From the NCBI GenBank assembly GCA_039182865.1, contig JBCDBX010000003.1, positions 1,343 to 65,342 on the forward strand: a stretch of DNA of 64,000 nt, written 5' to 3'. The DNA comes from Pseudomonadota bacterium. Its GTDB lineage: Bacteria; Pseudomonadota; Gammaproteobacteria; UBA4575. This document shows positions 17,884 through 56,432 of this stretch, piece after piece (position 1 is the stretch's first letter; the number at the start of each line of letters is the position of its first letter). A program made the translations under genes and the position numbers. The notes beneath the pieces were generated by a model. That model had not been told where the DNA came from. It was given only the letters and a program-made list of their open reading frames with translations, and did no database searches.

Positions 17884-19206
17884 TTACTTTTCGGCGAACA
17901 TAGATTTAGCATTATCAAAAAACTCATCTTCTTCGCTCTCTAAAATACTACCCATATCAATTCCTGGATCGATTTGAGAGTCTTCAAATGCCTTTAGCTC
18001 CTCACCTTCACTTAACCCATTTGAAGTTTTTTCTAGAGCCCGATCGTGATTTCCACTGACAGAATTTCTCAATGTAGGAGGCGCCTCTTCAGTCATCGTA
18101 TCGATGACGCTAGTTGTATCTTTATTCTGTTCACCCACGCTTTTAACTTGGCCACCAAAATTTAATTGCCATTCAAGATTACTACGTGAATCCGCAAAGT
18201 TAAGTGCATCTTCTACTGTAATTTTTTCATTCTTATATAAATCATGCAGACTTTGATCAAAAGTTTGCATACCTACTGCCGCACCTTTTTCCATCACCTC
18301 TTTAATACTTCCAAACTCACCTTTGCGAACTAATTCTGAGATATAAGGCGTATTAAGTAATACTTCAACGGCTGGAATGCGTCCACCATCAGATGCAGGA
18401 ACTAAACGCTGTGAAATAATTGCTGCAAGGTTAAGAGATAAATCCATCAAAACCTGATTTTTAGAATCTGATGGAAATAAATTCAACATGCGATCAAGCG
18501 CTTGGTTAGCATTCACCGCATGCAGTGTAGACAAACACAAGTGACCAGTATCCGCATATGACATTGCAGCTTCCATTGTAAGCTTGTCTCGAATCTCACC
18601 GATCATAATCACATCAGGGGCCTCACGCATGGCTTCTCTTAGCGCATTGTCGTAGGAGAGTGTATCTAGTCCAACCTCACGCTGTCCTATAATTGATTTT
18701 TTATGCGTAAAAACATATTCAATTGGATCTTCAATTGTCAGGATGTGCCCAGATTCTTGTTGATTTCGATACTCAATCATTGAAGCCAACGAAGTAGATT
18801 TACCAGAGCCAGTGGATCCAACCATCAAGATCAGACCATTCTTTCGCATGACTAGCTCGCGTAGAACCTCTGGCAGCCCTAATTTGTCAAGTGCAGGGAT
18901 ATCGCATTTTATATAACGAATCACCATCGATACTTCACCACGCTGATAATAGATATTTACGCGGTAACGTCCACCACCAGGTACTGATAGACCAAGGTTC
19001 ATTTCTTTAGTGAGTTCAAACTCTTTAATCTGTTGCTCACTCATAATTTCAAAAGCGAGCTGCTTGACAGTACCAGGCTTTAATTCAGATTTAGTTATAT
19101 GTTGAGTATTACCGTCAACCTTCATACTGACGAAAGCACCGGTTGTAAAGAAAAGATCTGAGGCAGATTTCTCGGCCATTAGATTTAGATATGGAGTAAT
19201 CTTCAT
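17884..19206 (-). CDS. PilT/PilU-family type IV pilus retraction ATPase, third paralog with an acidic C-terminal extension
   Basis: Walker A (GSTGSGKST), Walker B (DVIMIGEIRD) and His box (TLHAVNANQALDRM) are present. There is a roughly 80-aa Asp/Glu-rich tail beyond the ATPase core. Confidence 0.75.
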   Translation of the reverse strand: MKITPYLNLMAEKSASDLFFTTGAFVSMKVDGNTQHITKSELKPGTVKQLAFEIMSEQQIKEFELTKEMNLGLSVPGGGRYRVNIYYQRGEVSMVIRYIKCDIPALDKLGLPEVLRELVMRKNGLILMVGSTGSGKSTSLASMIEYRNQQESGHILTIEDPIEYVFTHKKSIIGQREVGLDTLSYDNALREAMREAPDVIMIGEIRDKLTMEAAMSYADTGHLCLSTLHAVNANQALDRMLNLFPSDSKNQVLMDLSLNLAAIISQRLVPASDGGRIPAVEVLLNTPYISELVRKGEFGSIKEVMEKGAAVGMQTFDQSLHDLYKNEKITVEDALNFADSRSNLEWQLNFGGQVKSVGEQNKDTTSVIDTMTEEAPPTLRNSVSGNHDRALEKTSNGLSEGEELKAFEDSQIDPGIDMGSILESEEDEFFDNAKSMFAEK

Positions 19207-19214
19207 TTTATGAT

Positions 19215-20399
19215 TTACCTGCTTTGAGCCATTGTCCCTATAACATTAGATCCGTTGTCATCCTCTTCGACCATAAAGTCTTCAGTGCCCTGGAGCAAAT
19301 CCTTATCTTGAGATGACTTACTTTCCAACTTCAATCGTAGTCGTAAATCATTTACTGAATCAGCATTACGCAAACCATCTTCAACGCTGATCATGCCTTC
19401 ATCTATTAATTCAAATAAGTGCTGATCGAATGTTTGCATGCCTAATTCTCTTGATTTTGATATTAATTCTTTCATCTTAGGGACATCGCCTTTAAAAATT
19501 AGATCTGCCATTAGAGGTGAATTAATCATGACTTCAATTGCTGGCACACGACCCTCCTTGCCTTTGATTGGCAATAGTCTCTGAGAGATGATCGATTTAA
19601 GATTCAACGAGAGATCCATTAAGAGTTGATCGCGTCTTTCTTCAGGGAAGAAGTTAATAATTCTATCCAATGCTTGGTTGGTACTATTAGCGTGTAATGT
19701 TGCAAGACATAAGTGCCCGGTTTCCGCAAATGCAACCGCGTATTCCATTGTTTCACGATCTCGAATCTCACCAATCAGAATTACGTCAGGCGCTTGTCTT
19801 AATGTGTTTTTCAGTGCGATTTCATAATTTTCGGTATCAACGCCCACTTCACGCTGCGTCACAATACAATTGCGATGTTTATGCACAAATTCGATAGGAT
19901 CTTCGATAGTAATAATGTGGCCTTGACTGTTTTCATTTCGATAACCAATCATAGAGGCTAGCGAAGTTGACTTACCACAGCCCGTTCCACCTACAAAAAT
20001 AACTAAGCCACGCTTTGCCATTGATATTTCTTTAATAACATTTGGCAAGCGCAGATCATCAATCACTGGGATCTCAGAATTAATAATACGCAACACCATG
20101 CCAGATGTATTTCTTTGCATGAATGCATTCACACGGAAGCGTGAGATATTAGGCAGGCTTATAGCAAAATTACATTCCTGCGTTTCTTCATATTCCCTGA
20201 TCTGACGATCATTCATGATTGATCGGACAATTACCTGTGTATGAGCTGCAGTGAGTGGCTGATTAGTAATCGGTACTAATTTGCCATCGACTTTCATCGA
20301 AGGTGGTGCTCCTACAGTGACGAATAAATCCGAACCTTCTTTTTGCAGCATGTTACGCAATAGGTCATGCATAAATGCTATGGCTTTATCTCTATCCAT
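19215..20399 (-). CDS. pilU: PilU-like type IV pilus retraction ATPase
   Basis: 394 aa with Walker A GGTGCGKST, Walker B DVILIGEIRD and His box TLHANSTNQALDRI. Located immediately downstream of pilT. Confidence 0.8.
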   Translation of the reverse strand: MDRDKAIAFMHDLLRNMLQKEGSDLFVTVGAPPSMKVDGKLVPITNQPLTAAHTQVIVRSIMNDRQIREYEETQECNFAISLPNISRFRVNAFMQRNTSGMVLRIINSEIPVIDDLRLPNVIKEISMAKRGLVIFVGGTGCGKSTSLASMIGYRNENSQGHIITIEDPIEFVHKHRNCIVTQREVGVDTENYEIALKNTLRQAPDVILIGEIRDRETMEYAVAFAETGHLCLATLHANSTNQALDRIINFFPEERRDQLLMDLSLNLKSIISQRLLPIKGKEGRVPAIEVMINSPLMADLIFKGDVPKMKELISKSRELGMQTFDQHLFELIDEGMISVEDGLRNADSVNDLRLRLKLESKSSQDKDLLQGTEDFMVEEDDNGSNVIGTMAQSR

Positions 20400-20432
20400 A
20401 TTGCCTAATCATCCTTTTTTGGTAATCCTTAA

Positions 20433-21467
20433 TTAGAAATCATCTTTATTCGCGGCCTTGCGTCGTGCTTCTTCTTTACCAATCAGGCCTTTTCCATGAA
20501 TGTCAGCTAAACATTGATCTAATGTCTGCATGCCAACATTTTGGCTGGTTTGGATCGCAGAATACATTTGTGCCACTTTATCTTCACGAATCAAGTTACG
20601 AATTGCAGGTGTTCCTAACATGATTTCATGAGCTGCGATTCTTCCACCACCTATCTTGCGACATAAGGTTTGCGAAATGACAGCACGTAATGATTCCGAT
20701 AACATAGAACGCACCATTGCCTTTTCTGTTGCGGGAAAAACATCGACAATACGATCGATCGTTTTTGCAGCTGAGCTCGTGTGTAATGTTCCAAATACTA
20801 AGTGGCCTGTCTCAGCCGCGGTCAACGCCAAACGAATGGTTTCCAAATCACGTAATTCACCAACGAGAATAGTATCTGGGTCCTCACGTAAGGCAGAGCG
20901 CAATGCTTCATTAAATCCCAAAGTGTCTCGATGTACTTCACGTTGGTTAATTAAGCTTTTTTTACTCTCGTGAATAAATTCAATTGGATCTTCAATTGTC
21001 AGGATATGACCATATTCATTTTCATTCTTATGATCGATCATTGCAGCCAATGTAGTAGACTTTCCCGATCCAGTAGGCCCGGTTACTAATACGATGCCAC
21101 GTGGATAAGTAGAAATCTCACTGAATATTCTTGGGCAGTCGAGTTCTTCTAGCGTGAGAATATTCGTTGGAATAGTTCTGAATACCGCACCAGCTCCACG
21201 ACTTTGGTTAAAAGCGTTAACACGAAATCTTGCTAGTCCAGGAATTTCAAAGGAAAAATCTGTCTCAAGAAATTCTTCATAATCTTTACGTTGCTTGTCA
21301 TTCATGATGTCATACACCATAGAATGCACTTGCTTATGTTCCATCACAGGAACATTGATTCGGCGCACATCCCCGTCAACACGAATCATGGGAGGAACAC
21401 CTGCTGAAAGGTGCAAATCAGATGCACCATTCTTAACTGAGAATGCCAGTAGCTGTGAAATATCCAC
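20433..21467 (-). CDS. pilT: Twitching motility protein PilT
   Basis: 344 aa with Walker A GPTGSGKST, Walker B DTILVGELRD and the PilT-specific AIRNLIRE motif. Confidence 0.85.
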   Translation of the reverse strand: MDISQLLAFSVKNGASDLHLSAGVPPMIRVDGDVRRINVPVMEHKQVHSMVYDIMNDKQRKDYEEFLETDFSFEIPGLARFRVNAFNQSRGAGAVFRTIPTNILTLEELDCPRIFSEISTYPRGIVLVTGPTGSGKSTTLAAMIDHKNENEYGHILTIEDPIEFIHESKKSLINQREVHRDTLGFNEALRSALREDPDTILVGELRDLETIRLALTAAETGHLVFGTLHTSSAAKTIDRIVDVFPATEKAMVRSMLSESLRAVISQTLCRKIGGGRIAAHEIMLGTPAIRNLIREDKVAQMYSAIQTSQNVGMQTLDQCLADIHGKGLIGKEEARRKAANKDDF

Positions 21468-33363: not shown

Positions 33364-36300
33364 TTACTTATAGCTATTCAGAAGACTACGCATTGTATTG
33401 GTATCAAATTTAATACGTAATTTTGCAAATGGTCCATCAGCTGTATATTCGGCACCACTGAAGTCATCGTCCTCAAACCCATCAAAATTATATCCAAGAC
33501 TCACCCAAACATTTTGATAAACATTGACACCTACCGATGGGCCAAATGAATATCTAAAGTTCTCAGAGTTGCTTGAATTCAAAATAGAGGTTTGGAAAGA
33601 AAGGTCAACACGACGATGAATATCATAACGATATCTAAAACCAAGTAATTGAGTAAAACCATCAAACTCATCACCATCGATATCATCAAGCACATATTTG
33701 GCACCCCAATGTATGCCTAATTGATGCAGATCATCAACAGTATAATTTAAGTTAAGATTATTAATTAGTGATCTTGAACGAATATCTAATGAATCACTTA
33801 CATCTTCACTAAATGAAAATTCTAAACGATTTAATATCGTATATGGACTATGGTCAGGTCTAAACGCAAGTGCATATGTCGCATCAGCAGTAACATTATT
33901 GCCACCGCCTTTTGTATCTGTTTCAAATATCTGAGTATCAAACGACATGCCTAAGCCTGTAAACTCTTCGCTATAGAGACCAAACAAGACACCGCGTTGT
34001 ATATCTGTGTCACTGGTACGATACTCCATCCTAGACGCTGCCGACCAATTTGTTTGCACATAATTCGCACCAAGAGAAAGCGCAGTAAAATCACCTGACA
34101 CACTTCCTGATGATAATGGAACGTTGTCATTAAATGGTGTTACACCCTCATCATTCAATGTATCCAATCTGTCAACACTGACATCTAATGACAAATGATC
34201 GTTGTATTGCCAGCCTTGCGTCAAACCCAAATTACTAAACAAGCGTTTTCCATTCTCACCTGATTGCTGTTCTACACTGGTATTAATTTCAGCCTGACTC
34301 CAAGGAATTAAACGTGTTCCAATCCGTGTTGTATTGGTATCCTGATCTTCACCTTGGGTATACTCATGTTCAGTAAATAATTCAGAAATTTCATTTAATT
34401 TATAATCCGCACCTGCAATATAACGTGTAGGATAATCAACAGAGTTGTCTGAGTTTACATCTATCTCGGCATTGGCACGCAAATTAAGTCTATTATCCAT
34501 TAACCTCTTTGCAGCTCCTGCGGTAACGAGTACAGATTCTCTATCTTCCTGTTGTGATAATTCATCTTTTGCATATGCCAAACCGGCAGCAAGACCATAT
34601 CCATTTTTATTATAGTTGAGCTCAACGTCTGCAACCGTACGTTTATTATTGTCAGATAAAACCTCATCACGAAATGCCTGACCATTGACTTCTACTGATT
34701 CATTAACACGATATCTCAGATCTGCACCATATCGTTCAGCACCATCATTGTTCTGACTTTGTTGATCTAAACCAAACCCTTCATCTTGCCTGCGGTAATA
34801 CACCAATGTATTGATTTTTTCTGTGCGGTGTTCTACTTCGGCCAATAACGCATCATTATTTTCATCACCATCTCCTGTATCAACACTACTGCGTGCTGCC
34901 TCTAAACGTACTTGAGTCTGCTCAGAAACGTTATATTCAAAATCTGCGCCAATAAGATCACCATCGGCATCTTCATCGCCCTGAGTAATAGCACTGATTC
35001 CGACTTCTATGCCGCGCTCTTTATCATATAAAGCAGCACGAATTCCGGCAGTTAATTCCTTATCTCCAGAGTTCTCTACTTCATAATCTGCAACAATAAA
35101 AACTGGATTAAAGTTTTGGTCGCGACTTGGGATCGGCTGTTTAAAGAATATCGTGCCATTATTAGTATCAATCGTGTAATCAACAAATTGTGTCAGTTGC
35201 ACATCACTGATAATTATATTGGGCTGAAATCTATCGCGTGTCACAATTGATACCTGCTCACTATTAATCACAATATCATTGTTCGATAACTGATATAGCC
35301 CCGAGGTACCATTCCCTTGAATTTCATCTTGCACAAATCTTTGATCGGTTTCAGACGCAAATGCATTAAAGCCAAATCGATTCCCCTCATATTCTGCTTT
35401 AGCGCCCGTTAAACTTCGTGTATATCTAGAGAGTTCTGTCACATCCATGTCTGTATTAAAATCACCAAATAAAGTATAAAACTGATTCTTCTCAAGTCTT
35501 ACATATAGCTTATCAGAGCTTGCGGCATCAAATTGTTGTTCAGTCGCATCTCCATAAAGCGTGTAATATTCATCTGGTGCGATTGTTTGGAATAACCTGT
35601 CATCTCTCTCGTCATCTCCACGTTCAGAGTCATAAGCCAGTGTCAACAACCATTCACCTTTAACCTGACCTTTGGCATAAAAGGCTAGGCGACCATCCTC
35701 ATAAAAATCTTCTTCAATATTATTATCACTTAAAGCACGCGCATTGCCAGAGACATTGTTATAACCTGTAGACCCCTCTGCAAGTCCAACTAAGATCCAT
35801 TCTTTTTGGACAGCTTGAATCCATGCATCTATAGATTCTTCTCGATCGTCAATAAATAAAAAATCTAGCGTTAGCTTACCGCCTAAAGTTGAAGGTTCAA
35901 TATCGATAAATGCGATACCATCTTGCTCAACTTTATATGTCAATCTACTAGAAGTAAGGCCATTCAAAGGTTGTTTGTCTAGCTCTCTTGTCTCTTGAAG
36001 CGACGTATAACCTTGAGAAAGTCCGTATTCGCCAATGATTTCTGGGCGTGCAGGGTAACCCCATTTGTCGAAAAACTTGACGGCAAGAACAATGGGGTTC
36101 TTACCATCTGCGATCAACCTTGAATATTCCGGAACTAACTGTGCTTTAATAGGCTGTCCAGAATAATGTATTGTTTGAGTAACCTGCTCCAACTGAATAT
36201 CATCTTCGCTATACGTGGTAGCAACAAAAACATTATCACCCTCTACAAGATCAACACCCTTCCAGCGATCAATTAATTTCTTCTTATCAGAACTAGTCGT

Positions 36301-39300
36301 TCTAGAATCAAAATTAAGTGCACTGACTTCTTTACCATTAAGCTCTAATTTTAGTTTTGTATTTACAGCACGCTTAATCTCAATCTGTATCGCGTTGATA
36401 AAAGGATTATAATTATCTCTGGGTGATAACCATTGCAATGAGTCATCCTGCTGATTCAACCATGTGACTGTAAACTCTGCTTCTTCAGCAACTGGCAAAC
36501 TCTCCCTTGGATGTACATAGTCACCAATCAACTCGTGTTTATTTAATAACTCTTGCTCACTCTTGTTGTTAGTGTTTCTGACAAATTTATCATCACCATC
36601 GATGATTATAGTATTCTCGATCACAGGAGATTGTGAGTTCAAGTTGCCCTCATGGTCATAAGTTAGCAAAAACTCTGTTTTATATTCACCATTAGCAAGA
36701 GATGGCATTTTTGCACTCAGTTCTAACACATACGTCCAATCACTGGTTTGTGGCACTCCAAGACTTATATTCAATGTCCCAAATAAGTTTCTCGCTTCAT
36801 AACCACTTTTACCATTCACCTTTATACTATCTTGAATAAATTTAAACTCACTAGGCAATATCACACTCGCATTAATATTACCTAAAGGCTGTTGTATACC
36901 TTGTAGCGTCATCGTATATCTAACTAGATCATTAAGTACTACACTATCAATCTGGGTATGTAATTTTCCTTTTTCTGGTGGTTTTTCTTTTAAGTAAAAA
37001 TTTGAACGCCATAACAATCCTGCATCGATATCCGCAAACTGTGACATCTTTGAACCGGCAGTACGCGTATTTTGCACACATTCTTGTATTTCTAGATGAT
37101 TAGGTATACTACTAGGATCAATTTGAATAACATGTGTCCCTGGCTCTAGCCCTTCAAAGTGGTACATCCCTCTTTGGTCTGTTAATACATATCGGCCATC
37201 TTCTAAAACCAAGCGTATCCCCTCAACGCCTTTCATTGTTGGTATGCCAACGAACTTAACTCTACCCTTGGCTTTTGATTTTTTAACAAATAGTTTTTTA
37301 CTTTCGCTATCTGATGAAGAATTAAATGTGTATATCGTATTAATAATATCGTAATGACTCTCAAATTTAGCTTCTGATTCACTTACTTTTAAATAGGCTT
37401 CAATAACGTACTGACCAGTTTTCTCGTTGCTCACTTTAGTACTAAATGTGAGTCTTATAGAATCTAGCTGTGTATCACTTCCTAAAATATATTTAAGGCT
37501 ACCTGATTGTATAATTGGCTCTGATATTTTCTTGTTATTCAATTCTGAGGAATCTGGAACATAGCTAAGGCCATCTGGTAAGTTGAAATTAACCTCAATT
37601 GGATAATCTAGGTTCGGTAACTTTGAGATGCTTAATTCATTAAGTAATTTATCGCCAACTTTTTCAGTCAACATGTGATAAGTAGCACTCCCATAATCAA
37701 TTTTATTTTCATTTTTACATGTCCCCTCAGTGACGGTACCAATCAAGAAACTCTTTGAAGAAATCAAATCATCTTGTACATCAACGACGGCTTGCGCATC
37801 TCTAGATCTGAACCCAACAGAATCTGTAGCAAATACAGTATTTATAGCATTACCAAACGGAGTACCTGAAGAAACTTCTACAACATATTTAACTGTAACG
37901 GTCTCACCCGATGGGATATCGCCCAATGCAATAGTAATCGAAGTGCCATTATTGGCAATATTAGGATCTGCTTGCTTAACGCTATCGAATTGCAAAGAGT
38001 CTTTTTGATATCTAAAGCCAGTAGGTAGAGAATCTAAAAGATTTACGTCAATAGCTGAATTACTTGAATTGTTGTTAGTGACTGTGATCTGGTACTGCAA
38101 AAAGTCTCCAATGCCGACAACGTCTTTTGAAGCTTGTTTACTAACAAAAAGTACATCACTGATTGGGTCAATAGGAATATCAACATGTAGTGGCGGACCA
38201 ACGACTAATGGAAAATCCAATCCAAATGATGCATTAGCATCTAGAGAAAACGGAGCATTTGGTAATGTTTGTAAGGTTGCGATGCTGACGGTAGATGGAA
38301 TAACAAAATCATCGGCCGTGACTTCAAGTCTATATGTACCCGCTGCAACGAATGGAAACCGATATTCACCCGCAGCAAATGTAAAAGTTGCACCCGAACC
38401 ATCTGTCACATCATTACCGGTGACCATGGTTGAAGGATATGAAATTGTTCCAGCAGGATCTGAAAATACTGTTGCGGGTAAACCTGTTATCGCATCAATC
38501 AATGTGATAGTAAGTCCACTTACAGGCGCACCATTGTCACTGCTGAAGACAATACCGAATGGATCAATAAGTACTCTTTCTGATGCAGCATCAGTTACAT
38601 CAAAAGCATCTATATAATCTATTGTAATCGTATCACCCGATTCAACCGCAAACTGGCAGTCAAATATAGCAATTGGTGTTTCTACTGTTTGGATAAAGCC
38701 AACAAATTCGCCTGTATTATTCCCTGTTTCCATCAACTCAATGACTTCACGGTCATTAGTTGCATCTGAGCTGATGTTAATTACAAGCAGATCTGGAATA
38801 TTTATATCAAAGTTTCTGTTGGCGTCAGTGACCTTGATAAAAATAGGATTGCCGCTGCTAATCGAAGGAGCCGGCAATAAATTAACTGGGTTTGAAATAT
38901 CTATCGTACCTACTAATGGATAAGTTGGATTTGGCAATGGTGTGAATGTGCCTGTGTTTCCAACACTACAACCTGTTGGCGAAACATCACCATTAAGACC
39001 ATCCCCATTTGGTGAAAATTGTAATATCTCAAGAGTGGCGTCACTAAATATTATTGATGTTGTAACATCAACCGTATTGGAATTTCGAGTTTGCGGCGTA
39101 GCAGATACATCATAATTTGCAACCGCAGTGTTAGAAATGACGGTACCAGGTGGTACCGCAAAGAGAGTGTTTGAAGAAGAAATAAACAAAAAAACAGCAC
39201 ACAATAAAAGCAGTAAAGCCTGTTGTACTTTAAAGTATTCAACAGGCTTGATGGCTTTTTTATTTGCCTTCCGCGCACACTCATGACACGGATATTGTCT

Positions 39301-39318
39301 AGTTGCAGTCCTTTGCAT
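33364..39318 (-). CDS. Giant secreted DUF11-domain protein with Ig-like/carboxypeptidase-regulatory-like repeats and a roughly 700-aa C-terminal predicted outer-membrane beta-barrel
   Basis: 1984 aa. Long N-region then hydrophobic core ...ALLLLLCAVFLFISSSNTLFA|VPPGTVISNTA. DUF11-like segment GDFLQYQITVTNNNSSNSAIDVNLLDSLPTGFRY. CarbopepD_reg-like GVEGIRLVLEDGRYVLTDQRGMYHFEGLEPGTH. The C-terminal third is Y/G/D/N-rich with alternating amphipathic strands ending ...FAKLRIKF. Confidence 0.65.
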   Translation of the reverse strand: MQRTATRQYPCHECARKANKKAIKPVEYFKVQQALLLLLCAVFLFISSSNTLFAVPPGTVISNTAVANYDVSATPQTRNSNTVDVTTSIIFSDATLEILQFSPNGDGLNGDVSPTGCSVGNTGTFTPLPNPTYPLVGTIDISNPVNLLPAPSISSGNPIFIKVTDANRNFDINIPDLLVINISSDATNDREVIELMETGNNTGEFVGFIQTVETPIAIFDCQFAVESGDTITIDYIDAFDVTDAASERVLIDPFGIVFSSDNGAPVSGLTITLIDAITGLPATVFSDPAGTISYPSTMVTGNDVTDGSGATFTFAAGEYRFPFVAAGTYRLEVTADDFVIPSTVSIATLQTLPNAPFSLDANASFGLDFPLVVGPPLHVDIPIDPISDVLFVSKQASKDVVGIGDFLQYQITVTNNNSSNSAIDVNLLDSLPTGFRYQKDSLQFDSVKQADPNIANNGTSITIALGDIPSGETVTVKYVVEVSSGTPFGNAINTVFATDSVGFRSRDAQAVVDVQDDLISSKSFLIGTVTEGTCKNENKIDYGSATYHMLTEKVGDKLLNELSISKLPNLDYPIEVNFNLPDGLSYVPDSSELNNKKISEPIIQSGSLKYILGSDTQLDSIRLTFSTKVSNEKTGQYVIEAYLKVSESEAKFESHYDIINTIYTFNSSSDSESKKLFVKKSKAKGRVKFVGIPTMKGVEGIRLVLEDGRYVLTDQRGMYHFEGLEPGTHVIQIDPSSIPNHLEIQECVQNTRTAGSKMSQFADIDAGLLWRSNFYLKEKPPEKGKLHTQIDSVVLNDLVRYTMTLQGIQQPLGNINASVILPSEFKFIQDSIKVNGKSGYEARNLFGTLNISLGVPQTSDWTYVLELSAKMPSLANGEYKTEFLLTYDHEGNLNSQSPVIENTIIIDGDDKFVRNTNNKSEQELLNKHELIGDYVHPRESLPVAEEAEFTVTWLNQQDDSLQWLSPRDNYNPFINAIQIEIKRAVNTKLKLELNGKEVSALNFDSRTTSSDKKKLIDRWKGVDLVEGDNVFVATTYSEDDIQLEQVTQTIHYSGQPIKAQLVPEYSRLIADGKNPIVLAVKFFDKWGYPARPEIIGEYGLSQGYTSLQETRELDKQPLNGLTSSRLTYKVEQDGIAFIDIEPSTLGGKLTLDFLFIDDREESIDAWIQAVQKEWILVGLAEGSTGYNNVSGNARALSDNNIEEDFYEDGRLAFYAKGQVKGEWLLTLAYDSERGDDERDDRLFQTIAPDEYYTLYGDATEQQFDAASSDKLYVRLEKNQFYTLFGDFNTDMDVTELSRYTRSLTGAKAEYEGNRFGFNAFASETDQRFVQDEIQGNGTSGLYQLSNNDIVINSEQVSIVTRDRFQPNIIISDVQLTQFVDYTIDTNNGTIFFKQPIPSRDQNFNPVFIVADYEVENSGDKELTAGIRAALYDKERGIEVGISAITQGDEDADGDLIGADFEYNVSEQTQVRLEAARSSVDTGDGDENNDALLAEVEHRTEKINTLVYYRRQDEGFGLDQQSQNNDGAERYGADLRYRVNESVEVNGQAFRDEVLSDNNKRTVADVELNYNKNGYGLAAGLAYAKDELSQQEDRESVLVTAGAAKRLMDNRLNLRANAEIDVNSDNSVDYPTRYIAGADYKLNEISELFTEHEYTQGEDQDTNTTRIGTRLIPWSQAEINTSVEQQSGENGKRLFSNLGLTQGWQYNDHLSLDVSVDRLDTLNDEGVTPFNDNVPLSSGSVSGDFTALSLGANYVQTNWSAASRMEYRTSDTDIQRGVLFGLYSEEFTGLGMSFDTQIFETDTKGGGNNVTADATYALAFRPDHSPYTILNRLEFSFSEDVSDSLDIRSRSLINNLNLNYTVDDLHQLGIHWGAKYVLDDIDGDEFDGFTQLLGFRYRYDIHRRVDLSFQTSILNSSNSENFRYSFGPSVGVNVYQNVWVSLGYNFDGFEDDDFSGAEYTADGPFAKLRIKFDTNTMRSLLNSYK

Positions 39319-39325
39319 TAATGAG

Positions 39326-39350
39326 ATGCGCGGACTTCATGTCCGCGCAT
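39326..39350 (-). promoter_or_regulatory. GC-rich perfect hairpin in the 5' leader of the giant gene (intercistronic between genes C and D)
   Basis: ATGCGCGGAC-TTCAT-GTCCGCGCAT: 10-bp stem, 5-nt loop, 8 nt upstream of the annotated ATG at 39318. Anomalously GC-rich for this genome. Confidence 0.4.
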
Positions 39351-39380
39351 TCCTAAACTTAGGAGTTGTTACATTATTTA

Positions 39381-40439
39381 CTACTGAATGACTGCATCAA
39401 ATGTAACAGTACACGTGGCACTAGCAGCGATAGTAATAGAATTTACTGTCACTGTATTACCTGCAGATGCATCCACAGCACCAGCACAGTTTGTATCAGT
39501 AATGTCAACACTTGGTAGGCTTAATACAAGTTCAGGATTCGGAACTGTGTCAGAAATACTAACATCTGTAACAGAGGATGAACCCTGATTTTCAATAGCG
39601 ATTGTATAGGTCACTGTTGCACCAGGAACAGCTTTATGATTAACACCATCATTTGTAACGCCTGGAGCACTCGCAGTTGTGGCTACTGTTTTCTGAACGA
39701 TCAGACCAGCAATTGTATATCGCACTTCTGAAGATGATACTAAGCCATCTTCAACCGCATCAGAACTAGCAGTATTAGTAGCTACATCAGTATTTTCACC
39801 ATCTGCAAATACAATCTCCACTGTAGTCGGATCATCAACGCTACCGCCATCATCTGAACCTAATGCAGAGCCTGCGCCATCTGATGCTTCCAGTGTCCAG
39901 TGAACTGCGGCTTCATCACTATTTGTTGAACCTGCTAAAATAGCAAGTGCAAATACTGTTTTTGTTTCATCTTCAAGCAAGTTTACTTCAGTAATGACTG
40001 TTTCAGTGCCCTCAAAAGTTCCATTGCCATCATCTTCATAAAATGTCACTGAAGATAAATCTAAATCGTCACCTGAGCTGAAATCAAGATAATTAAGCAA
40101 AAAATCCTGGGTACCGTTACCTGTATTAGTAACAGTTAAAATCACTAAATCGCCCACGGAGGCAGTCGCACCCGGCGCTGCGGGTGATGCAGTGATTGAC
40201 ATATCGATTAATTCATCGACGAGGAATCTTGTTGCATCATTATCTGCCGCAGTAGAGGGATCATCGGATAGAATTGGTGATTGTGCAGTTCCACCCACTG
40301 AGTAGCTGATGGTGGCCTGATTATCTACAGGTGTAGATTCATCTGTGCCCACCGCAAACGATTGTGTATTTAAGATTAATCCAGATAGGACGAATCCTAT
40401 ACATAGCTTAAATACATTCCTTGTATGTAAAATTTTCAT
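39381..40439 (-). CDS. Secreted two-domain DUF11-like beta-sandwich protein (C)
   Basis: 352 aa with a signal peptide and Thr/Ser/Asp/Gly-rich sequence. C-terminal DUF11-like PGATVTYTIAIENQGSSSVTDVSISDTVPNP. The N-terminus after the signal peptide is related to those of A and D. Confidence 0.6.
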   Translation of the reverse strand: MKILHTRNVFKLCIGFVLSGLILNTQSFAVGTDESTPVDNQATISYSVGGTAQSPILSDDPSTAADNDATRFLVDELIDMSITASPAAPGATASVGDLVILTVTNTGNGTQDFLLNYLDFSSGDDLDLSSVTFYEDDGNGTFEGTETVITEVNLLEDETKTVFALAILAGSTNSDEAAVHWTLEASDGAGSALGSDDGGSVDDPTTVEIVFADGENTDVATNTASSDAVEDGLVSSSEVRYTIAGLIVQKTVATTASAPGVTNDGVNHKAVPGATVTYTIAIENQGSSSVTDVSISDTVPNPELVLSLPSVDITDTNCAGAVDASAGNTVTVNSITIAASATCTVTFDAVIQ

Positions 40440-49818: not shown

Positions 49819-52176
49819 CTAGCGATTCTCTAAGCGGCTGTAATCAAACAAGCTGTAATTAATTGGATCTTTCTGCTCAAAATTTGAATGCAATTGGTCA
49901 CTGTGTTGCCAAAAGTTCTCGGCTGTGCGACGAATTCCATATATCGCCATAAAGTCAGAATATTTCTGATTAGAATTAATTTTTAACACACGATCCACAA
50001 GCATATCTAGTTGGTCTTCATAAACATGCCAAAATGTATTGGGATAGGCACCTATAAAACCATTGACTACTGTCACTGTATCTTTAACTGGACTACGGCT
50101 GTCTTTCTCATCGAATAATGTCGTAACATTTTTATGTGCATCGTTTCTGATTAAAGTGAATACACTTAACTTACCTTCACTATTCTCTATACTTAAAAAA
50201 GTAACATCTGACAACTCCTGAACAGCTCTATTTGGTATTGCATTTAATGCCTCTAATGCATCAAGGTAATTTTGAGGCGTGTTATCTTTATTAATATTAA
50301 AGCCTTGATCCTTGATATCGGATACACGCTGACTCAACAATCCAAGCAGTTCCTCTCTAGGCTCATTGGTTTTGTATGAAATGTTTGTCTCATGAAAAAA
50401 TTGCTCATTCACAGCATCAAAGTAATCATTGACATGTTTATCCGCATCCTCATACCACTCCTGCCACACTTGTTGCCGAGCATCACGAGGAAGCATTTCA
50501 ATAAAATTTATTTCAGACTCCATACGTAAAAAGTCCATATAAAGACGTGTAAGCAATTGATGTCCGACATTCCCAAATACATTGTAGCCAGCGACTAGTA
50601 AATAATGAATTCGCTCAAAAATTGAGTAGTCAATTACCCATGCGGTCTCAGGTTTCTTGCCCACGAGACCTCGCACAACCGAGGCACTATCAAAATGTCT
50701 AAACACGGTTAAAGCAGCATTCGGATTTTTACCTTCACCATTCCAAATAAGATCTAAATTTATTTTTTCGCTCTGCTCAAATAATTGTTCTTCGTATTGA
50801 TATTTATTCTTGAGATAGGTTTTTTGCTGCGTGGCATATGAGCGCCAATCAGTAATGGTAAGTAATACAGGATTACCCTTACCCGCCGGTAACTGCAAAT
50901 TACTGCTATTAATGGCTAAAAACTCTGCATTATCCGCGGGTAGTGATACGTTAGGGTTAGAAAAGAATACCCAGAAACGATCTCGAATCACATCTAGCGC
51001 AATCTGCCCACGACAAACAGGGCCCTTCATGAATGCCATAATAATTTTTTCGGCATCATCCAACATAAAGCGATAACGCGAATCTACTGGTAACTGTTGA
51101 AAAGCCACAAACGGATTACTTGCTACCTCAGCTTGATAAGAAACCTTATCTTTAACTCCATATTCAGGCTGAAAAAACAATTGTTTCCAACGTTCTAATC
51201 GAGCATCGCTCAACTCATAGGGCATATGTGTTTTTGAGACCAAGGTTGCATCTACGACTTTTAAGCGGTAATAAAAATTGTTCACCCCAGGATCATCATA
51301 GGGTCTGACAGTATCAATAAGCTCAATCGCTTCTCCTGTCGGAGTATACGAACGCACTAACTGAAAATAATTTAACTCTGCATCATCTTGATAATACAAA
51401 TGAAATAAATATAGATGCTCAAAAATATAACGGCTAACTAATTGTGACTTCAATGATGCTTGATTAAAAAACGCCTCCCATCGTTCTACTTCTTTTTGTA
51501 AATTATCATTTAAAGGAGCAGGACTAGCCATCGGTGCATTCGCATCTATCCATTCAACCAAAGTTGATTGCTCCTGTTGTGATAATGCGGGCAAACCATA
51601 TGGCATTCCCCATAAAGGGAAACGTTTAGAGAATTCGTCAAATTGATAAATATTGGGACACGCTTGGCTTCGATTTAAGTCTAAGGTGATATCTTTAGGT
51701 AACAAGGCTAGACCCGGTAATGGATGCTGATTTTTTAATTCTAAATATCGATATATAAGACTCGCTTTACGATTGGTGTCTTCACTTGCTTCACCTTCAT
51801 TTAAGACTGGATAAAAACCTTTTTTTCGCCATTCCTTTGTAGTGTATGCATCTGCAGAAGGACTGACATGCTCAGCAGCAAGTATGCGAGCACCATCATA
51901 AACGCGTTCTTTATTAGCGCCACGATCAATACCTGCAGGACTGGTTAGCTTCAATTGACAAGGAGCATCATAACAACCATGACAAACTACGCAGCGTTTA
52001 TCAAAAATGGGCTTGATATCTGTTTGATATTTTTGACCCCATTCAGAATCAAATGCTACATATCTTTCTTGGAATGAAGATGAATCATATTCATTGGCTG
52101 CAAACAGTGCACAACCCGTTATCGATATGATAAGTAGGGTAAATAAAATAAGTTTAGAATCCTGACGCCTTTTCAT
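49819..52176 (-). CDS. cti: Periplasmic fatty-acid cis/trans isomerase (Cti), heme c-type
   Basis: Lipoprotein-like signal (LLIISITGC) followed by the Cti heme-binding motif CVVCHGCYDAPCQLKL. Roughly 785 aa, which is the Cti size. Start set at the ATG at 52176; the ORF track extends to 52236. Confidence 0.75.
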   Translation of the reverse strand: MKRRQDSKLILFTLLIISITGCALFAANEYDSSSFQERYVAFDSEWGQKYQTDIKPIFDKRCVVCHGCYDAPCQLKLTSPAGIDRGANKERVYDGARILAAEHVSPSADAYTTKEWRKKGFYPVLNEGEASEDTNRKASLIYRYLELKNQHPLPGLALLPKDITLDLNRSQACPNIYQFDEFSKRFPLWGMPYGLPALSQQEQSTLVEWIDANAPMASPAPLNDNLQKEVERWEAFFNQASLKSQLVSRYIFEHLYLFHLYYQDDAELNYFQLVRSYTPTGEAIELIDTVRPYDDPGVNNFYYRLKVVDATLVSKTHMPYELSDARLERWKQLFFQPEYGVKDKVSYQAEVASNPFVAFQQLPVDSRYRFMLDDAEKIIMAFMKGPVCRGQIALDVIRDRFWVFFSNPNVSLPADNAEFLAINSSNLQLPAGKGNPVLLTITDWRSYATQQKTYLKNKYQYEEQLFEQSEKINLDLIWNGEGKNPNAALTVFRHFDSASVVRGLVGKKPETAWVIDYSIFERIHYLLVAGYNVFGNVGHQLLTRLYMDFLRMESEINFIEMLPRDARQQVWQEWYEDADKHVNDYFDAVNEQFFHETNISYKTNEPREELLGLLSQRVSDIKDQGFNINKDNTPQNYLDALEALNAIPNRAVQELSDVTFLSIENSEGKLSVFTLIRNDAHKNVTTLFDEKDSRSPVKDTVTVVNGFIGAYPNTFWHVYEDQLDMLVDRVLKINSNQKYSDFMAIYGIRRTAENFWQHSDQLHSNFEQKDPINYSLFDYSRLENR

Positions 52177-52266
52177 TTTAAACTCTTTTGAAATCATTCT
52201 GACAAAAATACTGACTTTGATCATCTTATAAGACAAAGAAAGTACACTAAATTATATATTCTCGAA

Positions 52267-52659
52267 TTATTCTTCTCTTGGCCTTTTCTGATAAGTCCTA
52301 TTTTTTGGGATTACGCTTCTAACTCCACCTCTTGGGTCTTCAACATCACCGAAATATCGAGGGATTAAATGAATATGCGTATGGGGAACGGACTGACCTG
52401 CTGCCTTACTTACATTGATACCAATATTATATGAATCTGGCTGGTGCTCTTTTTCAACTAATTCCTTCGCTATCTTTACAGATTCCCAAAGCTCACGCAC
52501 TTCTTCATCTGTGCAATCGAAATAATTAGGCACATGACGATTCGGCACTATCAGCATATGACCAGGCGAGGCAGGATATCGATCTTTACTTATAAACGTG
52601 AGTTCACCTTGATAGACCAAGTCAAGTCTTTTACAAAAAATACAATCTTCTATAGACAT
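52267..52659 (-). CDS. HIT-family hydrolase
   Basis: Histidine triad HTHIHLIP and upstream HMLIVPNRH. Confidence 0.75.
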   Translation of the reverse strand: MSIEDCIFCKRLDLVYQGELTFISKDRYPASPGHMLIVPNRHVPNYFDCTDEEVRELWESVKIAKELVEKEHQPDSYNIGINVSKAAGQSVPHTHIHLIPRYFGDVEDPRGGVRSVIPKNRTYQKRPREE

Positions 52660-52782: not shown

Positions 52783-54177
52783 ATGTATCAACATTACTTT
52801 ATTGCTGCTTTATTAATTGTGATGGCAGCAAGCTCCGCGACTCATGCACTTCTCAATAAAACAGACTCGCGTTCGGCACTGGGCTGGATAGCCGTTTCAA
52901 TTGTATTTCCATTCTTTGGTCCCATCTTTTATTTTTTATTTGGCATCAACCGTGTTCAAAATCGTGCGGTCAAACTCAATTATTACTTGAGAAAACGGCA
53001 TTTTGAAAGCAAGCATCATCAAACTTATGTTTTCAACCCACTCAAGAATATTCAAATAGTCTCTCATCAACTGACTGAACTACCTTTACTAGGCGGCAAT
53101 TCGGTAGAGATCTTATATTCTGGTAAACAAGCTTACCCTTCAATGATTCAAGCGATAAATTCTGCTAAAGATTACATTTATCTTTCTACTTACATTTTCA
53201 AGCCCGATGAAACAGGAACAGCATTTATCAACGCACTCGCGGAAGCGAAGGACCGTGGCGTTAAAGTATTTGTATTAATCGATGGTGTAGGCGAATTTTA
53301 TTCGATCAGAAAAGCAAGCAAACTGTTAGCTAAAAATAATGTTGATGTTGCACGTTTTCTCCCACCCAAACTAGTTCCATTCAACATCTATATCAACTTG
53401 CGAAATCACCGCAAGTTATTAATCATTGATGACTACATTGGTTTTGCTGGAGGCATGAATATCAGTCACCAATATGCCTCTAACGGCAAAAATAATCCGA
53501 AAGATACTCACTTTAAGTTATCTGGGAGTATTACTTTACAGCTAAAACATTTATTTGAAGCAGATTGGAGATTTGCTACACAGGAGGAAACTAATATTCC
53601 AACTCCCAGCTGCCAAGATCAAGAAACTTCATCTTGGTGTCGCACGATTTGCGATGGGCCTGGTGAGAATCTTGGACATCTTTCCATTGTCATATTTAGT
53701 GCGATTAACGCAGCAACAAAATCAATCACTATCATGACACCTTATTTTTTACCAAATAAAGATTTAATTCGCGCTTTAGAAGTCGCTGCCCTGCGTGGTA
53801 TCGATGTGTCCCTTATTCTTCCTAAAAATAATAATCTTTTCTATGTAGATTGGGCCTGCCGACATATGCTTTGGCAACTAGTTGGATCTGGTATCAATAT
53901 TTATTACCAACCAGGACCATTTGAACATTCCAAATTATTTATTGTGGATAGTTTTTATACTCTAATCGGGTCTGCTAACTTCGATCCACGCAGCTTACGA
54001 CTTAACTATGAAGTAGGCGTTGAAATTTATGATAAAAATGTCGCGACAGAATTAACTGAATATACGCATACCGTTATTATGCATAGCCGAAAATTGACAC
54101 TAGATGAACTAAGGAGTAGATCTTTGGCGGTTAAATTAAGAGATGGTGTTGCCTGGCTGTTTTCACCTTACTTATAA
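52783..54177 (+). CDS. cls: Cardiolipin synthase (PLD superfamily, two HKD motifs)
   Basis: N-terminal TM helices and two HKD motifs (HRKLLIIDD..GG.N and HSKLFIVD..IGSANFD). Confidence 0.8.
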   Translation: MYQHYFIAALLIVMAASSATHALLNKTDSRSALGWIAVSIVFPFFGPIFYFLFGINRVQNRAVKLNYYLRKRHFESKHHQTYVFNPLKNIQIVSHQLTELPLLGGNSVEILYSGKQAYPSMIQAINSAKDYIYLSTYIFKPDETGTAFINALAEAKDRGVKVFVLIDGVGEFYSIRKASKLLAKNNVDVARFLPPKLVPFNIYINLRNHRKLLIIDDYIGFAGGMNISHQYASNGKNNPKDTHFKLSGSITLQLKHLFEADWRFATQEETNIPTPSCQDQETSSWCRTICDGPGENLGHLSIVIFSAINAATKSITIMTPYFLPNKDLIRALEVAALRGIDVSLILPKNNNLFYVDWACRHMLWQLVGSGINIYYQPGPFEHSKLFIVDSFYTLIGSANFDPRSLRLNYEVGVEIYDKNVATELTEYTHTVIMHSRKLTLDELRSRSLAVKLRDGVAWLFSPYL

Positions 54178-54181
54178 ACCT

Positions 54182-54493
54182 CTAAAACTTATCTAGCCTA
54201 AATACTTGAGAATCACTGATATAAATAACAATCGCATAGTTTTCAAAATATTTATCTTTCACAAAAGTTGAGATTTTTTTTGCCTGATCCGCATCACAAA
54301 TGATTTCAATACGAATATTACTATTAGACTCCCAACCTCCCATTCTAGAACCGCGTCGCCCCTTTCCGCGCGCATCGATGATTGTAAATCCATTAACACC
54401 TAGCGACTCAAAGTCATCGATCAATGATGACTCAATACTGGCTTCAGTAATAATCGTTAATACTTTTATATTATGTATTTTATCTTCCATCAT
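54182..54493 (-). CDS. sbtB: SbtB-like PII-family signalling protein
   Basis: NGFTIIDARGKGRRGSRMGG...IRIEIICDADQAKKISTFVKDKYFENYAIVIYISDSQV aligns closely with cyanobacterial SbtB (GYTVMNTGGKGSRNVRSSG...KYFNDYAGIIYICSAEV). Directly downstream of the sbtA-like gene. Confidence 0.7.
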   Translation of the reverse strand: MMEDKIHNIKVLTIITEASIESSLIDDFESLGVNGFTIIDARGKGRRGSRMGGWESNSNIRIEIICDADQAKKISTFVKDKYFENYAIVIYISDSQVFRLDKF

Positions 54494-54497
54494 GTAT

Positions 54498-55442
54498 TTA
54501 CCCAGTGATAGTGCTATGCATTAATTCGGCTATTTTTAAGTATATTGGAATACCAAATATGACGTTAAAAGAAAATGTAATCCCCAAGGATGCCGTCAAA
54601 GATAATGTTGGATTTGCTTCTGGAATCGAAATACGCATGGCCGCAGGAACAGCAATATAAGACGCACTTGCAGCGAGTGTCGCTAGCATCCCCATGCCTC
54701 CTACTGACATACCCAACATGATGCCAAAAAGGCAACCAATAACTGCAGAAAATAATGGCATCAGAATTCCAAAGGCAATCAAAAACACACCATGGTTTTT
54801 TAATGAACCCACTTGCATCGCGGCGATTAAGCCCATCTCAAGTAAGAAAATTGCTAGCACACCTTTGAATAAATCAAAAAATAGAGGCTCAATAGATGCG
54901 ATACCTTCAGGACCTGCAATCCACCCAATCAATAAACCGCCAACCAATAAGACGATACCTTTTCCTAGAAATACTTCATGGAATACGATAGACCATTGGG
55001 TATTTTTAGTGATGCCTTTTGCAAGAATAATCCCAACAAGAATAGCAGGAATTTCTAGCAGCACTAAAAGAAGTGGCATATGCTCTTCATAGAAAACATT
55101 TTTGGTCCCGTAGTATGCGACTGCTACTGCAAACGTCCCCACACTGACCGAACCATAGTGAGCCGCAATAGAGGCTGCATCACCCACCTTGAATTTACCC
55201 AAATAAAGCAATACCGGATATGCAATCAAAGTTAAAAGTGAGCCCATAAAAATAACCGCCACCATATCTGGTAGAAGACTGACGAGAGACTGCTTAGCAA
55301 GCTCAACTCCACCTTTGAGACCGATGGCTATCAGCAATAGAAAGCTTATGAACTCATAAATTTGCCCCGGCAACCTTAAAGATGAACGCAGAATGCCCGC
55401 AACAAACCCTAATAGAAAAAATAAGATAATGGGGTCGATAAT
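54498..55442 (-). CDS. sbtA: SbtA-family sodium-dependent bicarbonate transporter-like permease (start uncertain, probably non-ATG)
   Basis: C-terminal AASASYIAVPAAMRISIPEANP... and N-terminal ...IAIGLKGG regions parallel SbtA. The annotated start is TTG at 55373. The in-frame upstream sequence to 55469 encodes a further SbtA-like TM helix with no ATG/GTG/TTG. Confidence 0.65.
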   Translation of the reverse strand: MIDPIILFFLLGFVAGILRSSLRLPGQIYEFISFLLLIAIGLKGGVELAKQSLVSLLPDMVAVIFMGSLLTLIAYPVLLYLGKFKVGDAASIAAHYGSVSVGTFAVAVAYYGTKNVFYEEHMPLLLVLLEIPAILVGIILAKGITKNTQWSIVFHEVFLGKGIVLLVGGLLIGWIAGPEGIASIEPLFFDLFKGVLAIFLLEMGLIAAMQVGSLKNHGVFLIAFGILMPLFSAVIGCLFGIMLGMSVGGMGMLATLAASASYIAVPAAMRISIPEANPTLSLTASLGITFSFNVIFGIPIYLKIAELMHSTITG

Positions 55443-55562
55443 AGCTACCTTTTTATAACAGCAATTGCGTTAACAACTTACTACAGACCGCAATAATTTA
55501 CAGCACTGTTATAGCATTTTATCATTCTCATAATCATATTATGACTAGCGACAAAGCTTGGT

Positions 55563-56432
55563 TTAATCCATCACTAGTTCATAACTACCTTTACTACGCA
55601 AATATATAATGCATCCTTCACTTTCATCGACAGCTAGATAATGTATCGATTTACCTTGAGAGCTAAAATAACTCCCCGGCATTAGAGTATTTTGGTCACC
55701 TTTCGCCTCAATTCCATGATTTACTTTTCCTTGAATAAGCACTCCTCGCATAATGGGCTGATCAACCAATATCTTGCCTGAAGATCCCGCCGGTAATTTT
55801 ACAAAGGTGCCATTTAGTTCTTTGCCTTGCGGCTCCCCCCAAAGAAATGCAATTTTAGCTGCGCTTTTTGATGATGTATTTTCTGCTTGCTTAATCCATT
55901 GTGTATTTGTTGCATCCAGCCATACGATATTGGATGCCTCTATGTTGACTGACTTATCACCTTCATCAAAAGCTTTACTCGTTGGAAGTACCAAGTATGG
56001 GCTTTGTTCAATTTCAATGTAAGCGATATTTTGCGAACCTTTAGCCGCAGTAATATGGATTTCACCTGCAGCTTGCGTCCAATAGGAACCGGATGACATC
56101 CATGCTTTATTAGCGGAAGGGTCATCATTATGGACTAAGCCACTAATGACGACACCGCGATACATAATATTATGAATATGTGGTGGTGAGGAAAAACCAT
56201 CAACAAACTTCACCAAAAACCCTGATGGGCCAACACCCGTTCGATCACCCCAAAGATTTCCCGCCTGAGGTCCTAACTTGCCTCGCGCTGGATTCAATGG
56301 CGTCCATTTCACATCCGATACCAACAGCACTTCATTCTTATCTTGTGCATTTGAAACAGAAGCATTTCCAAAGATGCTGATAACAAAGACGAGTAAAACT
56401 AACTTCTTTATTGTTATCTTCAATTTAGTCAT
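55563..56432 (-). CDS. Secreted hypothetical protein (possible cupin-like fold)
   Basis: 289 aa with an N-terminal signal peptide (…GNASVSNA|QD). No confident family assignment. Confidence 0.4.

Follow-up and report, generated by a model that had tools for sequence, protein, structure and literature searches.

A 64,000-nt stretch of DNA from a Pseudomonadota bacterium (GTDB lineage Gammaproteobacteria; UBA4575; GenBank assembly GCA_039182865.1, contig JBCDBX010000003.1, positions 1,343 to 65,342 of the forward strand), in the following called the window, carries on its minus strand a pair of genes for an SbtA-family permease and an SbtB-like PII-family protein. The permease gene has no canonical start codon (ATG, GTG or TTG) upstream of its conserved first transmembrane helix (TM1). 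Comparison with related loci indicated that translation most likely starts at an ATC codon (AUC in the mRNA) at positions 55439-55437, rather than at the ATT at 55442 or the TTG at 55373, and judged by codon conservation this ATC start is demonstrably under selection. Family, fold, lack of a canonical start and selection on the ATC, the Shine-Dalgarno (SD) sequence and the N-terminal residues are directly supported by the data, whereas initiation at the ATC is what we infer. Altogether, we regard it as likely that the genes form an sbtA-sbtB-type module whose permease is translated from an AUC located 8 nt after an AAGG.

The permease open reading frame (ORF) ends with a TAA at 54500-54498, and its first ATG, GTG or TTG is the TTG at 55373-55371, which was the start of the mechanical ORF call. 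Upstream of this TTG the frame stays open up to an in-frame TAA at 55472-55470, which, as read from the sequence, limits any N-terminal extension; this segment encodes RNCCYKKVAIIDPIILFFLLGFVAGILRSSLR and contains no ATG, GTG or TTG. The AAGG (55451-55448), the ATT (55442-55440) and the ATC were found on the minus strand at these positions in the window. The sequence-only reading had described the ORFs, the AAGG, the ATT, the ATC and the stop codons in the same way, and all its sequence statements and coordinates were verified, as was its conclusion that a canonical start for TM1 is missing. As reinterpreted here, the sbtA-like coding sequence spans 54498-55439 on the minus strand (313 codons plus TAA), in agreement with a full-length Sbt_1 match, the AlphaFold2 (AF2) fold and the start deduced from comparative data. 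Its product is predicted to begin with fMet-Asp-Pro-Ile-Ile-Leu-Phe-Phe.

For the comparison 171 related loci were collected, and the family-wide survey of start codons comprised the first 169 of them and the window, with a readable 5' end in 157 cases. In 140/157 loci an ATG, GTG or TTG was present no more than eight codons before the conserved Asp/Glu-Pro, and in 50 family loci such a codon stood directly before Asp-Pro, at the position of the window ATC (31 ATG, 9 GTG and 10 TTG). The other 17 loci had no canonical start upstream of Asp-Pro, and in 16 of these an ATC directly precedes GAY-CCN. All but one of the 16 belong to a single monophyletic clade with amino acid identities of 76-95% and no canonical-start member inside; 14 were placed in the neighbour-joining tree and the fifteenth is the 3'-truncated L060. 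Two clade members fetched after the survey likewise carry ATC before Asp-Pro, so that the 18 ATC loci consist of a 17-member clade, window included, and one locus outside it (L041). The clade was sampled through exact-protein look-ups, a metagenome scan added one close relative (L081), and P0002 was left out.

L041 is an independent ATC case, with 64% identity, 60% GC and a position elsewhere in the tree. Its ATC (L041:2990-3003) stands directly before GAT-CCC, three codons after an in-frame TAA, and its nearest relatives have canonical starts, so that it seems to have arisen independently, or possibly by recent mutation. A third independent non-canonical case, L152, also has no canonical start; in its start region, about 30 nt before the codons for EPVVLFF, an ATT is found 7 nt after AGGAG and three codons before Glu-Pro, and the base following this ATT is A, so that no TTG arises. 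Among the canonical starts of the family GTG (19/140) and TTG (20/140) were common, a pattern that, with the 17 non-canonical cases added, may reflect a family-wide tendency towards weak initiation, with the reservation that the nearest canonical codon was always taken as the start and this rule may inflate the share of GTG and TTG. For the other proteins of the window about 25 Pfam alignments start near the N-termini and give no hint of further missing starts, although this is a weak test.

The ATT at 55440-55442 on the minus strand, immediately upstream of the ATC, is the start in the NCBI annotation of the metagenome-assembled genome (MAG) to which the window belongs (MEM8843634.1, P0001; 314 aa, MIDPIIL). 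Initiation at this codon to give Met-Ile-Asp-Pro, or the use of both ATT and ATC, has in its favor that ATT is near-cognate too, that it lies 5 nt after the AAGG core, that the NCBI annotation pipeline (PGAP) chose it and that runs of two or three ATH codons occur here in several clade members. However, the codon is not conserved, since orthologues carry TCC, AAC, TTT, AGC, GTC, CCA or CTG at this position, and it is the distance between SD core and ATC that stays constant at 6-9 nt. PGAP itself picked the ATC in L166 (MDW3094664.1, MDPIIL...). Because in-frame stop codons lie 3-5 codons before the ATC in five loci (L041, L060, L081, L161 and L166), the ATC is the only near-cognate codon shared by the loci. 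Initiation at the ATT thus seems improbable, and this codon is probably part of the 5' untranslated region or, at most, a minor alternative start. The sequence-only reading had offered AUU or AUC initiation or a decaying 5' end; rare initiation has held up, refined to the ATC, which was conserved in 18/18 loci, and not the ATT.

Selection on the start codon was evaluated against the other isoleucine codons of the gene. Among 14 full-length clade genes 20 Ile columns are invariant. In 19 of these, two or three synonymous codons occur, whereas the start column is ATC throughout, although ATC makes up just 25% of the Ile codons. When all degenerate invariant columns were considered, only 3/193 were invariant at the codon level. 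According to parsimony on the clade tree the start column underwent 0 changes and the other Ile columns 2-7 (mean 4.2). In low-GC relatives where this Ile is internal, it is mostly encoded by ATT (5 vs 2). The protein level gave a matching picture: the ratio of non-synonymous to synonymous differences (pN/pS) was 0.13 in codons 2-22 (pS 0.78) and 0.17 in codons 23-140, as compared to 0.78 in the ten codons upstream of the ATC, and in 7/14 loci these ten codons contain in-frame stops. The step from 0.78 to 0.13 and the upstream stop codons therefore indicate that coding constraint begins at the ATC.

The same data bear on the possibility that the permease starts at the TTG (55371-55373, minus strand) or at another internal codon, in which case the protein would be truncated and the upstream conservation would act at the RNA or DNA level. 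Such a start agrees with the mechanical ORF calls and with most public gene calls of the clade (P0003-P0019, P0022-P0025, P0058, P0059, P0069 and P0082), which are 267-305 aa long, begin at internal Leu, Val or Met codons and lose at least TM1. It conflicts with the amino acid constraint on codons 2-22 at saturated synonymous sites, which is unlike non-coding constraint. Moreover, no downstream canonical codon is conserved: the TTG encodes the internal Leu23, which is TTG in just 8/15 clade members and CTG, TTA or CTA in the rest, and the codons of Leu9 and Leu10 vary as well. Truncation would also remove TM1a and break the 5+5 fold. Codons 3-16 (55392-55433, minus strand) encode the first half of TM1 in the gate domain, form a helix (residues 3-16) in the AF2 model and align with SbtA from residue 17 onward, and a start at residue 23 would delete this helix. 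In cyanobacterial SbtA the gate domain includes TM1, which also touches the neighboring subunit of the trimer (PMC8352866). An internal start was accordingly judged very improbable. The ortholog comparison suggested earlier was thus carried out, and it revealed no universal downstream TTG or ATG start and residues upstream of the TTG that are conserved at the protein level.

Even less credence can be given to a pseudogene or to a 5' end in decay since an ancestral ATG was lost. The codon before Asp-Pro was probably ATG in the ancestor, as seen in 31 relatives, and in L170, a member of the clade, the frame is shifted near codon 21. However, the ORF is intact in 16/17 clade members from independent assemblies, synonymous divergence is saturated while pN/pS stays at 0.13-0.17 throughout the gene, SD and ATC are kept everywhere, and sbtB is kept downstream. 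The earlier suggestion of a decaying 5' end was dropped in view of these values. In L170 itself (L170:1460-1530; P0025) SD and ATC are kept and an extra T is found in a T-run of a long-read contig; a homopolymer assembly error is likely, the other option being a young pseudogene.

When the 160 nt upstream of the start were aligned for 15 clade members, nothing was conserved but the SD core and ATCGA, and no shared promoter, operator, upstream open reading frame (uORF) or slippery site was detected in this alignment. Frameshift, read-through and uORF-coupling models are disfavored by the lack of a shared element in these 160 nt. A promoter and terminator scan of window positions 54000-55800 gave sites no more often than shuffled sequences did, and none on the minus strand at 55440-55560. 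In an Rfam scan of the whole window tRNA-Phe was the sole match, with no riboswitch or leader near sbtA.

The ribosome-binding site (RBS) was the second conserved feature of the start region. An SD core AGG or GGG is located 6-9 nt upstream of the ATC in 18/18 loci, and in the window it is the AAGG at 55448-55451 (minus strand), 8 nt upstream. The mean energy of the anti-SD duplex was -5.1 kcal/mol in the ATC loci vs -2.6 in ten canonical-start relatives of low GC content, which hints at compensation. The stretch 4-13 nt after the SD core was free of ATG, GTG and TTG in all three frames of all 18 loci, although about nine were expected from the upstream background. The codon context offers a reason for the invariant third base of the start codon: a change from ATC to ATT would yield ATTGAY in every locus and thereby, at the same RBS, a canonical TTG shifted out of frame by one nucleotide. 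The invariant C is explained by this at least partly.

Several points weigh against AUC initiation as described here. The clade is monophyletic and the ATC may trace to a single origin, and the parsimony probability of zero change is about 0.015 when taken alone. Avoidance of an out-of-frame TTG leaves the absence of ATA unexplained. The window ATT (55442), with its 5-nt distance from the SD core, could contribute to initiation, and L171 has an in-frame CTG immediately before its ATC. All support is comparative, and all clade members are uncultured MAGs or metagenome contigs. Efficiency figures from Escherichia coli, to which we refer below, may not transfer to these bacteria, and the 4-nt gap between the genes might mean that sbtB is translationally coupled to sbtA, which would undercut the idea that the regulator is made in excess.

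The family assignment of the permease was clear. It matches Pfam Sbt_1 (PF05982; TC 2.A.83) with E 4.6e-112 and 374.8 bits (cut-off 27) over profile positions 1-307 of 308, and profile position 1 corresponds to the Pro of 'DPIIL', upstream of the TTG; the alignment with SbtA from the PDB begins at the same point. Synechocystis SbtA (7cye) matches at E 6e-25 in two blocks that skip the cytoplasmic loop between TM5 and TM6. In the alignment with slr1512 the query proceeds from 144 to 152 while the chain runs from 156 to 212, i.e. a loop of about 55 aa (about residues 157-211) is absent, and the permease has 313 aa vs 374 aa in Synechocystis SbtA. The AF2 model of the 313-aa protein (mean local confidence pLDDT 86, predicted TM-score pTM 0.87) superimposes on the SbtA structures 7egl, 7egk, 8zor and 7cyf with TM-scores of 0.87-0.90 over 313-322 columns, followed by symporters of the ASBT/NTCP type as next structural matches. 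In the predicted structure ten transmembrane helices are arranged as two inverted repeats of five, as in solved SbtA. No NCBIfam model matched the permease, and the PII-like protein gave only a weak, sub-threshold match. By its sequence the permease is a member of the SbtA family, but outside the cyanobacterial SbtA1 subtype.

The second gene (54182-54493, minus strand) has an ATG start, a TAG stop and encodes 103 aa; the ATG follows the permease stop after 4 nt. An sbtB-like PII-family regulator was assigned on the basis of PF00543 (E 1.2e-19), SbtB-type PDB matches and gene order. In the PDB the best hits were TTHA0516 (2cz4, 4.7e-17), 3dfe (1.6e-10), slr1513 (4e-9) and Cyanobium SbtB (1.2e-8), whereas canonical PII proteins reached E ~0.4-0.5 at best. 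Thus, the protein groups with SbtB and not with GlnB or GlnK, and the sbtA-sbtB-like pair proposed from the sequence was supported by both partners. SbtB proteins are marked by binding of adenine nucleotides (ATP, ADP, AMP, cAMP, c-di-AMP) and by insertion of the T-loop into SbtA. The SbtB-like protein retains the GKG..R base of the T-loop, and its T-loop is 4 residues shorter than that of Synechocystis SbtB. The redox R-loop CGPxGC was not present in the protein, which ends with ...FRLDKF and has no Cys pair there; this motif is kept in only some SbtB homologues (PMC8352866). A PII-like ORF is located directly 3' of the permease in at least 109/158 family loci, with 4 nt as the commonest gap. 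The flanking genes vary among clade members and sbtA-sbtB alone is conserved. Sequence and gene order taken together, the pair is an sbtA-sbtB-type module, yet not of the cyanobacterial subtype.

In clade members sbtA ends with GGG-TAA or GGA-TAA 3-6 nt before the ATG of sbtB. In the window the last Gly codon and the T of the stop form an SD-like GGGT (54500-54503, minus strand), separated by 6 nt (54499-54494) from this ATG, and the terminal GGG or GGA may thus serve as an SD sequence for sbtB. On the plus strand, a cardiolipin synthase gene (52783-54177) is convergent with sbtB; the stop codons of both genes are only 4 nt apart, and nothing resembling a terminator was found between them.

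With respect to the substrate, the conservation of key residues was mixed. The positions aligned to the sodium site of Synechocystis SbtA at the TM4a/TM9a crossover (Phe110-Gly111-Ala112, Ala320 and Ser322, all main-chain ligands) are occupied by Tyr-Gly-Ser, Ala and Ser in the permease and fall within the family-invariant motifs HYGSVS and LAASAS. Among the bicarbonate ligands of Synechocystis SbtA, for which the reference site is a docking model, Ser114 and Ser324 are kept, and Tyr140 is replaced by Leu and Ser327 by Ala. The paper on SbtA2 held no residue-level data that would help with the substrate. We considered that the AUC-initiated module is real but that the short-loop proteobacterial subfamily carries a small anion or solute other than bicarbonate, with a PII-like partner that senses a non-carbon signal. 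The identity of 27-28% to Synechocystis SbtA is compatible with this, and so are the missing R-loop and shorter T-loop of the partner and the neighboring genes that are not conserved across the clade; the replacement of two of the four docked ligands and the lack of the long cytoplasmic loop also make the substrate uncertain. Profile scans of the 64-kb window detected no autotrophy genes. On the other hand, the positions aligned to the sodium site and two Ser ligands are kept, and the bicarbonate site used for the comparison is itself a docking model. Heterotrophs, too, require bicarbonate for carboxylations. According to the review PMC10880623, which cites Scott et al. 2019, SbtA-family members of autotrophic Proteobacteria are reported to be active with bicarbonate. 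All in all, a different substrate appears rather doubtful, though it deserves to be kept in mind, and bicarbonate is the substrate that we assume for the sbtA-sbtB-type module.

A working model can be formulated from these observations. The AUC at 55439-55437 would be read by initiator tRNA as fMet and would give rise to a 313-aa, sodium-coupled permease of the SbtA family with ten transmembrane helices in a 5+5 inverted repeat. The second gene would provide a trimeric PII-like protein of the SbtB type, the T-loop of which is expected to plug the cytoplasmic cleft of the permease. Because AUC is a near-cognate, weak codon that initiation factor 3 (IF3) discriminates against, the permease would be made at a low rate relative to the regulator, possibly dependent on IF3 or on the growth state. 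The regulator, with an ATG of its own preceded by an SD-like element, might therefore be produced in excess and could thereby keep the transporter capped by the T-loop plug. In E. coli AUC initiation reaches about 1-2% of AUG and yields N-terminal Met (10.1101/063800). The AUU or AUC start of infC is what IF3 autoregulation acts on, and non-AUG starts respond disproportionately to nutrient limitation and ppGpp in vitro (PMC5499595). Plugging of the transporter by the T-loop of SbtB has been described, with an analogy drawn to GlnK-AmtB (PMC8352866; 10.1101/2023.08.10.552651).

A bolder version of this model, which we put forward only tentatively, is that the AUC represents a selected regulatory device. 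The low ratio of transporter to regulator would ensure that every SbtA trimer can be capped by its SbtB 'valve plug', and uptake of inorganic carbon would be tied to the translational state of the cell via IF3 and possibly ppGpp. Only ATC and never ATT would be tolerated because the RBS window has been purged of canonical start triplets, and the ATC of L041, the ATT of L152 and the 39/140 GTG or TTG starts would then reflect selection across the family for weak initiation of SbtA-type permeases.

Comparison with characterized systems places the module near several of them. It resembles SbtA-SbtB of Synechocystis sp. PCC 6803 (slr1512/slr1513; 7cye, 7cyf, 7egk, 7egl, 8zor) in Pfam family, 10-TM 5+5 fold, a PII-like partner a few nucleotides downstream, a shared core of this partner and its KYF..YA..IY motif. 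It differs in that the identities are only 27-28% (SbtA) and 32% (SbtB), the host is a non-photosynthetic gammaproteobacterium and the start codon is AUC. The best solved-structure match of the partner, PII-like TTHA0516 of Thermus thermophilus, aligns end to end and has the same short T-loop length and C-terminal ...R..K[FY]. The arrangement is also analogous to GlnK-AmtB, where a PII-family trimer encoded beside a trimeric transporter plugs it via the T-loop; transporter family and ligand logic are different there, and the match to canonical PII is just E ~0.4.

SbtA-family transporters for dissolved inorganic carbon (DIC) of Thiomicrospira, Hydrogenovibrio and Thiomicrorhabdus are likewise non-cyanobacterial and belong to the same family (reviewed in PMC10880623). 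The permease studied here has no carboxysome or RubisCO context in the window, and the review reports nothing on non-canonical starts. More generally, SbtA-family transporters are widespread in non-cyanobacterial autotrophs and in heterotrophs, with bicarbonate activity reported for proteobacterial members (PMC10880623, PMC12628692). We found more than 8000 SbtA-family homologues across many phyla. An sbtAB module outside cyanobacteria, singled out as noteworthy in the sequence-only reading, is hence not remarkable in itself and is already in the literature (PMC10880623).

The closest parallels to the start codon are two E. coli genes, infC (AUU, with AUC in some species) and pcnB (AUU), and ebpA of Enterococcus faecalis (ATT), which share with sbtA a conserved near-cognate AUH start, an SD sequence and the lack of a canonical alternative. 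In these genes weak initiation limits or regulates expression and IF3 discriminates against such codons; the ATT start dampens expression of ebpA, for example (PMC4447247). The sbtA gene differs from them in that it encodes a membrane transporter, uses specifically AUC and is known by comparison only. Among literature matches on bacterial AUC starts, most concerned mitochondrial genomes and eukaryotic work. To our knowledge, few natural AUC starts other than that of infC are well supported. The sbtA case has the advantage of an internal control in the 19 freely varying Ile columns.

Both SbtA-family genes outside cyanobacteria and non-canonical AUH starts are already known. New, in a modest sense, is the clade-wide, selected AUC start of a transporter gene together with a sequence-context reason for its invariant third base, and current understanding is not changed by it in a major way. 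In practical terms, the public protein sets of the clade are nearly all N-terminally truncated, and SD-N(6-9)-ATC-GAY-CCN offers a simple rule for their correction. Should the weak start determine the ratio of SbtA to SbtB, this would be relevant to heterologous expression of SbtA, where dosage and co-expression of SbtB matter.

The other genes of the window encode PilT/PilU ATPases, a ChpA-like kinase, an OprD-type porin, GshB, AdoHcy hydrolase, cardiolipin synthase, a HIT protein and a fatty-acid cis/trans isomerase, and by this gene content the host looks like a heterotrophic, uncultured gammaproteobacterium. The neighborhood of cardiolipin synthase (52783-54177, plus strand), HIT protein and cis/trans isomerase (49819-52659, minus strand) is shared with L163 and not with other clade members. 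The isomerase ORF (49819-52236, minus strand) starts at a TTG located 127 residues before the Pfam domain; further into its N-terminal part a Met precedes a lipobox-like ...ITGC, and the true start may lie downstream. Three tandem genes for PilT/PilU-type ATPases (17884-21467, minus strand) and a gene for a ChpA-like hybrid kinase of 1769 aa that has multiple Hpt domains (2884-8193, minus strand) look like a control region for type IV pili and twitching. Finally, the genes at 33364-40439 (minus strand) code for a protein of 1984 aa that carries DUF11/SdrD-like repeats and, after it, for a DUF11 protein of 352 aa; they probably represent a surface adhesin locus.

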